Part shown: positions 3,458 to 9,554 of the stretch, one piece after another | Numbering within the stretch: the stretch's first letter is position 1 | Layout of the letters: each line of letters begins with the position of its first letter | Source of the DNA: a virus | Lineage: Duplodnaviria > Heunggongvirae > Uroviricota > Caudoviricetes | DNA length: 13,510 bases | Direction: 5' to 3' (one strand) | IMG/VR virus record: IMGVR_UViG_2671180556_000021 | Notes under the pieces: generated by a model | Databases searched by the model: none | The model's input: the letters and a program-made list of their open reading frames with translations, nothing else | What the model was told of the DNA's origin: nothing | Translations under genes and position numbers: made by a program

Positions 3458-4288
3458 ACCGGACTCCTCCTGCGATCCCTTCTGATACTGTCATCAGCAT
3501 TACGTCATCCTCCGTCATGTCCGCCACATCCGGGGAAGCGGGGATAACTTCATTCCCGTCCGGGCCAAAGCGGACACCTCCGGCAAGCCCTGCCGCTTTC
3601 TGCATCAGCACATCATCTTCAGGCTCTTCGTCAGCCTCGCGCCGGTTCAGCAGACTGAAATCCAGCGGATGCATATCCGGATCGCTGAAAAACAGGCTGA
3701 GCACGGTGTACGTCAGCCCGGAAAAGTGCATATCCAGCAGAACATCATGAAAATAATGGGTACTGTAAAAGCGGTGCCAGTCGGCATACTCCGTGGATGA
3801 CATCCCGGCAAGCATGGCACGCCAGTCGGGTCGCCCCATCTCACGCGCCAGTTTCAGGGCAAAACTCAGCTCACCGTCGAACACTTTCCCGCAGAAACAG
3901 GCTCTGCGGGCCCGGCGTCCTCTGTCTGTTCAGGGGCATTATTCACAACAAACTCATACATACCAGACAGCCGGTACACCACGTTTTCAGCATGAGAAAT
4001 TGCCTCCGTGGGCCAGGTGGTAAGCACTTCCTGCTCAATCTGTTTAACGGCTTCATTCATGGACGGCATCTGCGTCTTCTGCGGATGGTTATGCCACAGG
4101 GACATCGCCACCAGAAACGCGCCGGTTCTGATGGCGTCTTCCACAGTAAACTTCCGGTTGCTGTCTGACTCCGCCTGTTCTGCCTGCCGTTTCATCAGGG
4201 CGAGATGCTCAATACGCTGCAGGGCTGACAGTTCAGAAAGCGTGACGGTCACGCCGTTATGTTCAAATGATTCGGTTTTCAGGAACAT
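3450..4288 (-). CDS. T: Tail assembly chaperone gpG-T, made by programmed -1 ribosomal frameshift from the G frame into the T frame (T-frame part 3450..3884)
   Basis: The T-frame ORF 3450..3884 (144 aa, VFDGELSFALKLAREMGRPDWRAML...) has no independent start with an SD. It overlaps the 3' end of G in the -1 frame directly downstream of a G GGA AAG heptamer. Its stop (3452..3450) overlaps the H start. Confidence 0.85.
3866..4288 (-). CDS. G: Tail assembly chaperone gpG (140 aa)
   Basis: ORF 3866..4288, 140 aa (MFLKTESFEHNGVTVTLSELSALQRIEHL...), ending ...AGKCSTVS. ATG at 4288 is preceded by the SD GGAGAG. Lies downstream of V as in lambda. Confidence 0.92.
   Translation of the reverse strand: MFLKTESFEHNGVTVTLSELSALQRIEHLALMKRQAEQAESDSNRKFTVEDAIRTGAFLVAMSLWHNHPQKTQMPSMNEAVKQIEQEVLTTWPTEAISHAENVVYRLSGMYEFVVNNAPEQTEDAGPAEPVSAGKCSTVS
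3884..3890 (-). promoter_or_regulatory. Slippery heptamer G GGA AAG for the G to G-T -1 programmed frameshift
   Basis: The plus strand reads CTTTCCC at 3884..3890, i.e. GGGAAAG on the coding strand, in the G frame as G|GGA|AAG eight codons before the G stop. Reading on in the -1 frame gives VFDGELSF..., the start of the T ORF. Confidence 0.8.
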
Positions 4289-6398: not shown

Positions 6399-6794
6399 TT
6401 ATTGCATTCTGGCCAGGCCGCGCTCTGTCATTTCGGCTGCCACACCGGCAGAGACACGAAACGCCGTTCCCGGCAGCACAAATGCCACAGGTTCATCCCG
6501 CGTGGCGTGAAGTGCATCGGTATGCAGCGTCACCAGTGCCACAACCGTGACCAGAGCAGCCGTATCAGTCACGGTATCCGTCTGTGCTGATACCACCTCA
6601 TTTTCATGTCCGGTCAGCGCATTTTCCGGGCTGACAGACGAGTCCTGACCGGCTCCGTCATCCGTGTCATCAAGCTCCTCTTCCAGCTCTGCCACACGGA
6701 GCGCCAGTTCTTCTTTCGTCCCCGTCAGGCTGACATCACGGTTCAGTTGCTCACCCAGCGACCGGAGACGGGCAATCAGTTCATCTTTCGTCAT
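6399..6794 (-). CDS. FI: DNA-packaging and head-assembly accessory protein gpFI (131 aa)
   Basis: ATG at 6794..6792 with a strong SD (GGAGGAG). Translation MTKDELIARLRSLGEQLNRDVSLTGTKEELALRVAELEEELDDTDD... The ORF-track entry 6399..6833 begins 13 codons upstream, but that start runs into the E terminus and the intergenic hairpin and has no SD. Confidence 0.85.
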   Translation of the reverse strand: MTKDELIARLRSLGEQLNRDVSLTGTKEELALRVAELEEELDDTDDGAGQDSSVSPENALTGHENEVVSAQTDTVTDTAALVTVVALVTLHTDALHATRDEPVAFVLPGTAFRVSAGVAAEMTERGLARMQ

Positions 6795-6815
6795 GGACTC
6801 CTCCACAGAGAGAAA

Positions 6816-6833
6816 ATGGCCCCGAAGGGCCAT
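6816..6833 (-). promoter_or_regulatory. Intercistronic RNA hairpin between E and FI: 7-bp stem AUGGCCC/GGGCCAU with a UUCG tetraloop, followed by a pyrimidine run
   Basis: The mRNA-sense (minus) strand reads UAA-UC-AUGGCCC-UUCG-GGGCCAU-UUUCUCUCU-GUGGAGGAGUCC-AUG(FI). The two arms are perfectly complementary (plus strand atggccc cgaa gggccat at 6816..6833) and the loop is the classic C(UUCG)G motif. Confidence 0.5.
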
Positions 6834-6835
6834 GA

Positions 6836-7857
6836 TTACGCCAGTTGTACGGACACGAACGCATCAGGGTCAGCCAGCAGCATCAGCGGTGCTGACTGAA
6901 TCATGGTGAACTCACGCGCCGGATCGCCGGTGGTCACCCAGTTTTTCGGGTAGCGGGCAGAGGCGTTAATACCTTCGCGCTGTGCGTCCGCATCCTGAAT
7001 GCAGCCATAGGTGCGCAGACCGCGTGCCTGAGTGTTCCCCAGCACCATCGTGTTGTCCGGCAGGAAGTTCTTTTTGACGTCGTTTTCCACGTACTGTCCG
7101 GAATACACGACGATCGCCGTATCGCCATACATTCCCTTATAGGACACCGCTTCGCCCAGGTCTTTTACCGCTGTCTCCAGCTCGGAATGAGAGCCGCGAC
7201 GGGTATCCAGCTTCTCCCTGACGGCTTTGAAGGAACGGAACAGCGCCCAGCCTTTCGGATCGAACACGATGATATTCACCACACCGCTGGCGTTCAGCGC
7301 GCTTCGATATCGTCGGTCGGGTCATACGTGGACTTGTCACGCTTGCTCCACTCCGTGCCGCCGGACTGCGTGATGTTATTCTCCTCACTGCGGCCCATAT
7401 CCACCTCAACCGGATCGAAGGCTTCACCGGTCATGGTGTATTTGCCCTTAAGCACGGCAGAAACTGCCTGCATCTCTTCGACCTGAGCAATGGCCAGCTC
7501 TTCGTCACGCATGTTCTGCATGATGATGCGACGGCGGCGGTAAGCCGGGTCCGCCAGATTCTGCGGATCTTCATCCGGCAGGCGACGCAGGGTCATCTGC
7601 GGATTCACTTCATGCTTCGGCTTGACATATCCCGGCGTAAATTCAGAGGTGGAGCCGCCACGGGAACGGATAACCTCACCGGAAACAATCGGCGAAACGT
7701 ACAGCGCCATGTTTACCAGTCCCGGAATTTGTGAGAGATAGACTTTCTCCGTAGTGAAGGGATAGCTCTCACGGAAAAAGAGACGCAGAAACAGCGGATC
7801 AAACTTAAATTTCTGCTCATTTGCCGCCAGCAGCTGGGCGGTTGTGTACATCGACAT
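6836..7857 (-). pseudogene. E: Major capsid protein gpE, interrupted by a frameshift (N-terminal frame 7294..7857, C-terminal frame 6836..7321)
   Basis: Starting from the ATG at 7857 (MSMYTTAQLLAANEQKFKFDPLF...), the frame stops at TGA 7296..7294 after ...STYDPTDDIEAR. The rest of the protein (ALNASGVVNIIVFDPKGWALFRSF...VSVQLA, stop 6838..6836) lies in another frame that is open only from 7321 downward. The two pieces total 1022 nt, where one continuous ORF of about 1026 nt (341 aa) is expected. Confidence 0.8.
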
Positions 7858-7870
7858 AAAAAAATCCCGT

Positions 7871-7895
7871 AAAAAAAGCCGCACAGGCGGCCTTT
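7871..7895 (-). terminator. Terminator-like hairpin in the D-E intergenic region: GC stem GCCGC/GCGGC, loop CUGU, then a U7 tract, on the late-mRNA strand
   Basis: The minus-strand RNA reads UAA(D stop)-CUUUACCCUUCAUCACU-AAAGGCCGC-CUGU-GCGGCUUUUUUU-ACGGGAUUUUUUU-AUG(E). Five G-C pairs extend by a G-U and three A-U pairs into the flanking A and U runs. A second U7 run lies directly before the E start codon. Confidence 0.4.
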
Positions 7896-7912
7896 AGTGA
7901 TGAAGGGTAAAG

Positions 7913-8245
7913 TTAAACGATGCTGATTGCCGTTCCGGCAAACGCGGTCCGTTTTTTCGTCTCGTCGCTGGCAGCCTCCGGCCAGAGCACATCCTCATAA
8001 CGGAACGTGCCGGACTTGTAGAACGTCAGCGTGGTGCTGGTCTGGTCAGCAGCAACCGCCAGAATGCCAACGGCAGCACCGTCGGTGGTGCCATCCCACG
8101 CAACCAGCTTACGGGTGGAGGTGTCCAGCATCAGCGGGGTCATTGCAGGCGCTTTCGCACTCAATCCGCCGGGCGCGGTTGCGGTATGAGCCGGGTCACT
8201 GTTGCCCAGCGGCTGGTAATGGGTAAAGGTTTCTTTGCTCGTCAT
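7913..8245 (-). CDS. D: Head decoration protein gpD (110 aa)
   Basis: ATG at 8245..8243 with the SD AAGGGA five nt upstream. Translation [41 protein letters not shown]..., 110 aa. The ORF-track entry 7913..8251 starts two codons too early (MFM...). Confidence 0.9.
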
Positions 8246-8860: not shown

Positions 8861-9554
8861 CCGGGACTGCAGTGTCTCCCGGACGTCATCCGGAAGATGG
8901 CTGTAGGGATTGCCATCCACCTTATGGCTGCCGCTGTAAATCAGCGTGATTTCCACACCCTGTTTCTCCAGGGCAGCACCGTAATTACTGTGAGCCATCA
9001 TGACGCCGATGGAGCCTGTCCGGGCGGTCTGCGTGACCAGACGCCGGGAGGCGGCACTGGCAAGCAGCTGACCTGCACTGCAGTTCATGTCGTTGGCCAG
9101 CGCCCATACCGGTTTTATGTCACGCACACGGGCGATGATGTCAGCGCAGTCAAATGCCCCCGCCACCATTCCGCCTGGCGTGTCCATATCCAGCAGAATG
9201 CCGTCCACCATCGGGTCACTGGCAGCCTGTTGCAGACGGGCGATAATGCCGTTGTAACCGGTCATCCCCGAATACGGCTGCAGCGCCCGCGTCCGGCTGA
9301 CCAGCGTGCCGGAAACCGGCAGCACGGCGATGCCATTCATGACCTGATAACTGCGGGCCTGTCGTGGTCCGTCATCATTAACGGATAACGCCAGCGTCGC
9401 GGGTGCCTCTCCGGCAGTCAGGCTGTCACCGGACACCGCATCCGTCAGGCGGCTGATCCCAAGCTGGCCTGCAAGCGCACAAAAGAAAACCCGCGCATAG
9501 GCGGGTTCAAGCATCAGCGGCTCATTAAAGGCCATGCTGGCAATATGCGGGAGA

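Follow-up and report, generated by a model that had tools for sequence, protein, structure and literature searches.

The window, by which we mean the whole stretch of 13,510 nt that was analysed, aligned end to end with lambda 555..13998 at approximately 96% identity and carried the late genes on its minus strand. The reading frames corresponded to Nu1/A through H, M, and L. Among the non-coding spacers of the window only two were sizeable, one between D and E and the other between E and FI, and both of them held a hairpin. The E-FI spacer, consisting of 41 non-coding nucleotides, was occupied by the hairpin under study. At the E-FI junction the nearest deposited phage was Escherichia phage 2H10 (99.6% across 251 nt), and 3284 of 5426 complete E. 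coli genomes carried the junction region, which thus belongs to a very common prophage module. Sigma-70-like promoter matches were depleted over the whole window (1 versus 5.9 ± 2.7 in shuffled sequences), which is consistent with a long promoter-less late operon. The positions of the features are listed in Table 1.

Table 1. Features of the window around the capsid gene and the other RNA structures mentioned in the text
Feature	Position	Strand	Remarks
D-E hairpin, AAAGGCCGC-CUGU-GCGGCUUUU	7895..7874	-	Followed by UUUACGGGAUUUUUUUAUG; canonical terminator-like; d score +22
E (major capsid) gene	6836..7857	-	Broken here according to the lambda alignment; two frames in the ORF list
E stop codon UAA	6838..6836	-	2 nt (UC) upstream of the stem
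E-FI hairpin	6833..6816	-	5' arm AUGGCCC 6833..6827; loop UUCG 6826..6823; 3' arm GGGCCAU 6822..6816
Pyrimidine tail UUUCUCUCU	6815..6807	-	3' of the stem; marginal U-tract; followed by GU and the Shine-Dalgarno (SD) sequence
FI SD sequence GGAGGAG	6804..6798	-	Followed by UCC and the FI AUG
FI (DNA packaging chaperone) CDS	6399..6794	-	AUG 6794..6792; from the ORF list; FI annotated in lambda and 2H10
Weak hairpin GUGGA/UCCAU	6792..6806	-	5 bp, predicted
Gene C terminator-like hairpin, GAACCCGC-CUAUGC-GCGGGUUU	9487..9508	-	Followed by UCUUUUG; 46 nt past the B stop
G-T slippery heptamer G GGA AAG	3892..3886	-	Overlaps the 3' arm of the G-T hairpin
G-T hairpin CCCGCAGAGCCUGUUUCUGCGGG	3910..3888	-	About -14 kcal/mol; upstream of the slip site, not downstream

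Reading of the sequence confirmed what the earlier note had described directly after the E stop, namely the perfect stem with its UUCG loop, their coordinates, the 2-nt gap, and the strong SD sequence of FI. Folding of the 22-nt piece also bore out the stability claimed for it, giving a ΔG of -12.4 kcal/mol with z = -3.35, and none of 200 shuffled sequences was as stable. The five G-C pairs were retained with a pairing probability of 0.95-1.0 in contexts of 151, 301, and 501 nt, and the outer A-U pair was weaker (0.44-0.76 in the 151-501 nt contexts). The loop and its closing pair, C(UUCG)G at 6827..6822, conformed to the UNCG tetraloop. The hairpin by itself is nevertheless not beyond chance; what goes beyond chance is its position in the 41-nt spacer together with its conservation. 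CUUCGG was observed three times on the sense strand versus 3.0 expected, and just the E-FI copy sits in a stem. Perfect Watson-Crick stems of at least 7 bp with a 4-nt loop numbered one on the sense strand, versus 1.05 per 13.5 kb in dinucleotide shuffles, and approximately 20 hairpins in the coding regions of the window were equally stable by energy alone when G·U pairs were allowed. No Rfam family was detected anywhere in the window at the gathering thresholds; a permissive scan of 6700..7950 gave two chance-level matches (Afu_514 and isrK), neither of them on the E-FI hairpin.

A second, weak hairpin (GUGGA/UCCAU) was predicted just downstream; its pairs take in part of the FI AUG and the first three bases of the SD sequence. 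The GGA of the SD sequence had an unpaired probability of 0.01-0.1 in this structure, which was not conserved in N15-type spacers. Two other structures were seen elsewhere in the window, a terminator-like hairpin inside gene C and a hairpin preceding the slip site of the G-T frameshift (Table 1).

The E-FI hairpin was identical at 18 of 18 positions to that of lambda itself (J02459, about 7163-7180), in which the same stem-loop is found with the same 2-nt gap from the E stop, the SD sequence, and the FI start. Lambda differs from the window at two positions of the tail (UUUCUCUCU in the window versus UGUUUCUCU in lambda), and its E gene is not frameshifted. Close relatives differed more in the tail than anywhere else in the spacer, and about a third of them had the version present in the window. 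In phage N15, a stem_loop at 7053..7073, between gene 8 (capsid) and gene 9 (FI), is labelled in GenBank as a 'putative rho-indep. transcription terminator'. The N15 structure (GUGGCCC-AUUC-GGGCCAC) occupies the homologous position and shares the GGCCC/GGGCC core, the 7-bp stem, and the 4-nt loop, whereas it differs in the outer pair (G-C instead of A-U), in the loop (AUUC instead of UUCG), and in a 9-nt gap from the stop; its tail, CUUUCUGG, gave a negative terminator score. The N15 record attaches the same putative terminator label to the D-E hairpin, and in mEp237 the D-E hairpin is likewise labelled a terminator. As the N15 homologue had been annotated, the element has been noticed before, and the hairpin is an already known, ordinary feature for which the role discussed here is a proposal. 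Full-text searches of a library of papers found none on the E-FI hairpin, and no printed copy of its sequence in a phage context.

Alignment with lambda also identified a 4-bp deletion in E between 7302 and 7301 (CCTA, lambda 6691-6694) that causes a frameshift. Translation from AUG 7857 therefore ends at a stop at 7296..7294 after 187 residues. The best matches among complete E. coli genomes were without the deletion, which reflects either a defective prophage copy or a sequencing error. Unless it is a sequencing error, E in the window is a pseudogene and the hairpin a well-preserved relic of a functional phage. With E broken, this copy has no capsid message to protect, and its hairpin is reached by no ribosome. 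The earlier note had pictured the two hairpins as bracketing the E cistron; both hairpins are indeed present, but the cistron between them is a pseudogene in this copy. The note had recognised neither this defect nor that the hairpin belongs to lambda. Premature stops in E were also observed in a Shigella flexneri locus (SFBU0723, L146) and in an IMG/VR contig (L035), at codons 141 and 277, respectively, and broken capsid genes were recurrent among lambda-like prophages.

For the comparative analysis, the sequences following the E stop were taken from 80 IMG/VR contigs, deposited phages, one genome per species, and eight distant phages. The IMG/VR scan with lambda E returned just 99-100% identical copies, useful for variation within the population and not for covariation. 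Whole-spacer alignment by MAFFT misplaced the outer 3' base of the N15-type stems, so loop-anchored 24-nt pieces were used instead, and one lineage (L124), which MAFFT had shifted by one column, was excluded. Many of the 100% matches in the genome scan came from unrelated assemblies contaminated with lambda DNA and were set aside. Lambda sequence with 97-100% identity (mostly 100%) was seen in assemblies of Chromatium, Neobacillus, Kitasatospora, Paenibacillus, Bradyrhizobium, Shewanella, Enterococcus, and others, as well as in a record named Campylobacter phage CJLB-4 (L092-L107, L127, L132, L138-L145, L148, and hit H63), and its presence there is almost certainly due to such contamination.

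Among close relatives the hairpin appears to be under purifying selection. In 98 of them, only 1 of the 18 hairpin positions was variable, compared with 9 of the 23 other positions of the spacer (Fisher p = 0.025). The sole variable position in the hairpin was the basal A, which was changed to G, converting A-U into G·U so that the pair was kept.

A wider family sharing the GGCCC core comprised lambda, N15, and mEp237 together with prophages of Kluyvera, Enterobacter, Citrobacter, Klebsiella, Trabulsiella, Buttiauxella, Phytobacter, and Pluralibacter. The outer pair in this family was G·U in six members, G-C in four, A-U in two, and unpaired in two, and the second pair was U-A in eight, C-G in two, U·G in one, and unpaired in three. 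Pairing was found in 94.9% of the alignment cells, versus 35-58% when the partners were slid, and the covariation score of 0.148 (0.100 ± 0.022 in shuffles) was reached by 6 of 500 shuffles. As the five inner pairs were invariant, the covariation rests on two pairs; it runs through G·U intermediates and is modest but genuine. The loop was not fixed in the lambda family, in which UCCG, UGCG, AUUC, UGUC, UGUU, and UUUC were found besides UUCG.

The comparison across lambdoid phages that the earlier note had looked to for compensatory changes thus turned out in favour of a preserved pairing, and it also brought out wholly different stems at the same site. The site following the capsid gene was occupied by a hairpin in 23 of 24 prophage lineages, and in 20 of the 24 this hairpin lay at or below the 5th percentile of control windows from the same locus. 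Stems with unrelated sequences were carried there by at least eight independent lineages. They included CGGGGGC-GAAAU-GCCCCCG, with a covarying variant CGGGAGC-UAAAU-GCUCCCG, as well as CAUGCCCC-UGAAU-GGGGCAUG, CGGCGGG-GAAA-CCCGCCG, AGGGGC-UACG-GCCCCU, an 11-bp stem in Trabulsiella, and GGCGCCC-UCAC-GGGCGCC in a Methylorubrum prophage with 31% protein identity. Such unrelated stems at one site are stronger evidence than the covariation. Strong hairpins also followed the capsid gene in seven of the eight distant phages of the E family (26-35% capsid protein identity), within spacers of 55-81 nt; these were Sano, Vibrio K243, Serratia Smarc1 (with C(UUCG)G), phiAxp-2 (GCGA), Chi, Proteus Saba (UACG), and RcMcLean. 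Stable tetraloops of the UNCG and GNRA types recurred among the post-capsid hairpins. In the distant phages the next gene is, by annotation alone, a hypothetical protein and not FI. Since the hairpin is kept where the following gene is not annotated as FI, it seems to be tied to the 3' end of the capsid gene and not to the 5' end of FI. In every relative, distant phages included, the stem began 2-22 nt past the capsid stop.

Terminator features were then evaluated at the E-FI site. A stem of 7 bp with five G-C pairs, closed by a 4-nt loop and with the stability given above, is what is expected of an intrinsic terminator, and a simple terminator-like scan listed the site. The tail UUUCUCUCU had 5 U in 8 nt and a T score of 3.2-3.8. 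The approximate d score of d'Aubenton-Carafa, which was computed here with modern energies in the old formula and is indicative only, was marginal for the E-FI hairpin, at +8.2 for the full 7-bp stem and +19.7 with the outer pair trimmed in the window, and at -3.0 and +9.7, respectively, in lambda. A positive score was obtained at only three sense-strand sites in the window, namely the D-E hairpin (+22), the E-FI hairpin (+20), and the site inside gene C (+13), and in only 2.1% of control windows from related loci. Across phages, the score of the post-capsid hairpin was positive in 14 of 24 lambdoid lineages and in one of the eight distant phages. Clearly canonical scores were seen in L123 (+43), L121 (+32), and L128 (+25), and the canonical U-tracts of L123, L128, and L134 would fit true termination in these lineages. 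The score was negative in N15-type, Kluyvera-type, and several other lineages. Judged from these sequences, conservation applies to the hairpin and not to the U-tract, although the missing U residues of the distant phages are a weak argument, as hosts such as Xylella and Rhodobacter may use terminators without U-tracts. Action as a bidirectional terminator was rejected, as the antisense hairpin (ΔG -11.4 kcal/mol) is followed by GAUUACGCC, which contains no U-tract.

The D-E hairpin mentioned in the earlier note was found in its place, with more U residues behind it, and by sequence it is a much better terminator look-alike than the E-FI hairpin. The D-E hairpin and its U7 tract were conserved in most lambdoid lineages with a constant GCCGC/GCGGC core, and its loop varied freely (CUGU, CUGC, UUGC, UUAU, CAGC, AAAA, and others). 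Different stems were found at this site in PhiR12-type, Methylorubrum, and Vibrio K243 phages, and no D-E spacer was present in Chi-like phages. As this hairpin lies just upstream of E, the gene whose product is needed most, such sites must be read through in the setting of the phage.

The context of the E-FI hairpin did not favour the folding of a terminator behind the polymerase, as the gap after the E stop is only 2 nt and the polymerase that transcribes the late operon is antiterminated by Q (PMC8022706). In lambda tR2, a stop codon at 5 bp upstream cuts the efficiency of termination from approximately 90% to less than 10%, and full efficiency needs more than 27 nt, the repression being due to the trailing ribosome (PMC4824070). 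With the stem at 2-22 nt past the stop, the post-capsid hairpins lie inside the range in which ribosomes repress tR2 (PMC4824070). The antitermination by Q and the 2-nt gap together imply that termination should be suppressed in lytic growth.

In the explanation that we tentatively favour, polymerases mostly read through a stem-loop of the terminator type, with at most weak residual termination, and the stem-loop then serves as a 3' exonuclease barrier for the capsid message. This explanation may hold even though we would not put it at even odds. During lytic growth the Q-modified RNA polymerase would pass through the E-FI hairpin, and ribosomes finishing E, whose stop lies 2 nt from the stem, would prevent the hairpin from folding in time to terminate. 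Once polymerase and ribosome are gone, the very stable C(UUCG)G hairpin would fold in the mRNA. An endonuclease would cut farther downstream, the 3'-to-5' exonucleases entering from there would stall at the hairpin, and the D-E part of the message would outlast the part downstream. A polymerase that is not antiterminated and has no trailing ribosome could stop at the hairpin with low to moderate efficiency. Read-through in vivo and the stabilising effect are both what we infer from the arrangement of the sequence. Stem-loops at 3' ends are known to block PNPase and RNase II, as in the REP of malEFG and in the puf operon. The position is that of a stabiliser, with a stable hairpin on the 3' side of the cistron that is expressed more strongly, when E is ranked by established knowledge. 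D and E encode the two highest-copy head proteins, and that only these two genes in the window are followed by hairpin-bearing non-coding spacers fits a stabilising role. Among the functions considered in the earlier note, an exonuclease barrier would fit best. The 1988 PNAS study of Sampson et al. is said to have concluded that translation initiation, not the amount of mRNA, sets the ratios of the lambda late proteins, which would leave little room for a large effect of stability.

A bolder form of the exonuclease-barrier proposal is rather doubtful. In this form, the hairpin would be an RNA element conserved widely among phages with an E-type capsid, ranging from lambda to the Chi-, Sano-, and Rhodobacter-types, and selected for segmental stabilisation of the capsid message rather than for termination, with a folding that depends on capsid translation through the proximity of the stop. 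If it were true, mRNA decay would help, besides translation initiation, to set the stoichiometry of head proteins in the lambda late operon.

The features in common with terminators could also mean that the hairpin is a leaky intrinsic terminator, at which some late transcripts end in the U-rich tail, leaving less mRNA for FI, FII, and the tail genes than for D and E. The GC-rich stem, the stable tetraloop, the U-rich tail, and the place of the site among the three positive-scoring ones of the window agree with such leakage, as do the annotation of the N15 homologue and the canonical U-tracts of several relatives, with the scores of L123, L121, and L128 given above. Partial termination is listed among the possible roles of intra-operon terminators in the phage L paper (PMC8022706), but the late operon is Q-antiterminated (PMC8022706) and the 2-nt gap from the stop falls in the range of near-complete repression by ribosomes (PMC4824070). 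The score is moreover marginal in the window and in lambda, N15-type, Kluyvera, and most distant phages have retained the hairpin but lack the U-tract, and the stronger terminator-like hairpin upstream of E must itself be read through. We consider leaky termination unlikely, and a partial terminator that lowers the expression of FI, FII, and the tail genes was the weakest of the readings in the earlier note.

Alternatively, the hairpin could be inert to the Q-modified polymerase and stop polymerases that started spuriously, in a lysogen or early in infection, so as to limit stray late expression. This role has been proposed for the equivalent terminators of P22 and L (PMC8022706). The D-E and E-FI sites flank the capsid gene, and when E is not translated, as in the frameshifted copy, the repression by ribosomes would be lifted (PMC4824070). 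A hairpin downstream of E, however, cannot prevent the expression of E, and the U-tract is weak or absent in many lineages. The scarcity of sigma-70-like promoters in the window also leaves little stray transcription to be stopped, and a safeguard of this kind seems quite improbable.

It is very unlikely that the hairpin serves the translation of FI, as a fast-folding element that insulates its ribosome-binding site from the E coding sequence, exposes the pyrimidine tract and the SD sequence, or hides the in-frame AUG 6833. The hairpin, the pyrimidine tract, and the strong SD sequence do form a compact unit, UUCG hairpins have been proposed as nucleation sites of folding (PMC4371310), and in lambda, N15, and phi80 the 5' arm carries an AUG or GUG that shares the reading frame of FI, with one record annotating FI from there. 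Against this, Chi-like and other phages have a hairpin behind the capsid gene even where the next gene is annotated as hypothetical and not as FI, an observation that also leaves little support for the translational decoupler suggested in the earlier note. Many lineages (L115, L121, and PhiR5_1) lack this start or carry it in a different frame, the distance to the next start codon varies, and pairing is predicted for the first three bases of the SD sequence in any case.

AUG 6833 (minus strand), located in the 5' arm of the hairpin, is in frame with FI, 13 codons upstream of its start. An N-terminally extended FI initiated at this codon was rejected, because this codon has no SD sequence and lies hidden within the stem, and because many lineages either lack such a start or have it in another frame. 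Starts of FI were inconsistent between records, being placed in phi80 at the equivalent GTG inside the hairpin (L003, 725..1177) and in phage 1W at 4 nt past the E stop (L090, 1533..1955).

The view that there is no RNA function, the GGCCC-NNNN-GGGCC core being a module-boundary sequence kept by recombination or hitch-hiking, or a chance palindrome, draws on the one such hairpin expected by chance per 13.5 kb, on the compatibility of five invariant core pairs with conservation of sequence rather than of structure, and on the decay of lambda-N15 homology right around the E-FI junction, but it is highly improbable and appears to be already largely refuted by the comparative data, in which unrelated stems hold the site in at least eight independent lineages and in seven of the eight distant phages, changes in the outer pairs keep the pairing, and the hairpin varies less than the remaining spacer positions.

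Three further candidates were rejected. A signal for read-through or recoding of the E stop codon did not agree with a stop-to-hairpin distance varying from 2 to 22 nt and with the lack of a conserved extension frame. A 7-bp stem is, by established knowledge, too short for an RNase III site. The sequence does not fit a REP/BIME element or an SfiI-like DNA site, and no second copy was present in the window.

The comparative picture is tidy but unsurprising. Hairpins behind the capsid gene in late operons have been remarked on before (PMC8022706). The wider pattern, in which almost all E-type phages examined have a stable hairpin behind the major capsid gene and the U-tract is optional, is of modest value. 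The hairpin alone matters little, being lambda's own, lying in a defective prophage copy, and having an N15 homologue that was already annotated.

The action that we tentatively favour, stalling of exonucleases, is that of the malE-malF REP and the Rhodobacter puf stem-loops, in which a stable hairpin likewise lies 3' of the more abundant cistron. The E-FI hairpin differs from the malE-malF REP in that it is not a REP sequence and has only 18 nt, and the stabilisation remains putative here. A terminator-like hairpin after the capsid gene inside a continuing operon is also found in T7, in which T-phi follows capsid gene 10 and is a measured partial terminator that acts on T7 RNA polymerase. In P22-like phages such as phage L, a terminator-like hairpin lies directly after the procapsid/coat block and the operon continues downstream (PMC8022706); the roles of the intra-late-operon terminators of phage L 'are not known' according to the authors (PMC8022706). 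The capsid families and the sequences of P22-like phages and T7 are unrelated to the lambda type. The intercistronic C(UUCG)G hairpins of T4, described by Tuerk et al. (1988) according to PMC4371310, have no homology to the lambda-family hairpin, whose loop is not fixed, and yet share with it the same tetraloop, the C-G closing pair, and the setting in a phage mRNA.
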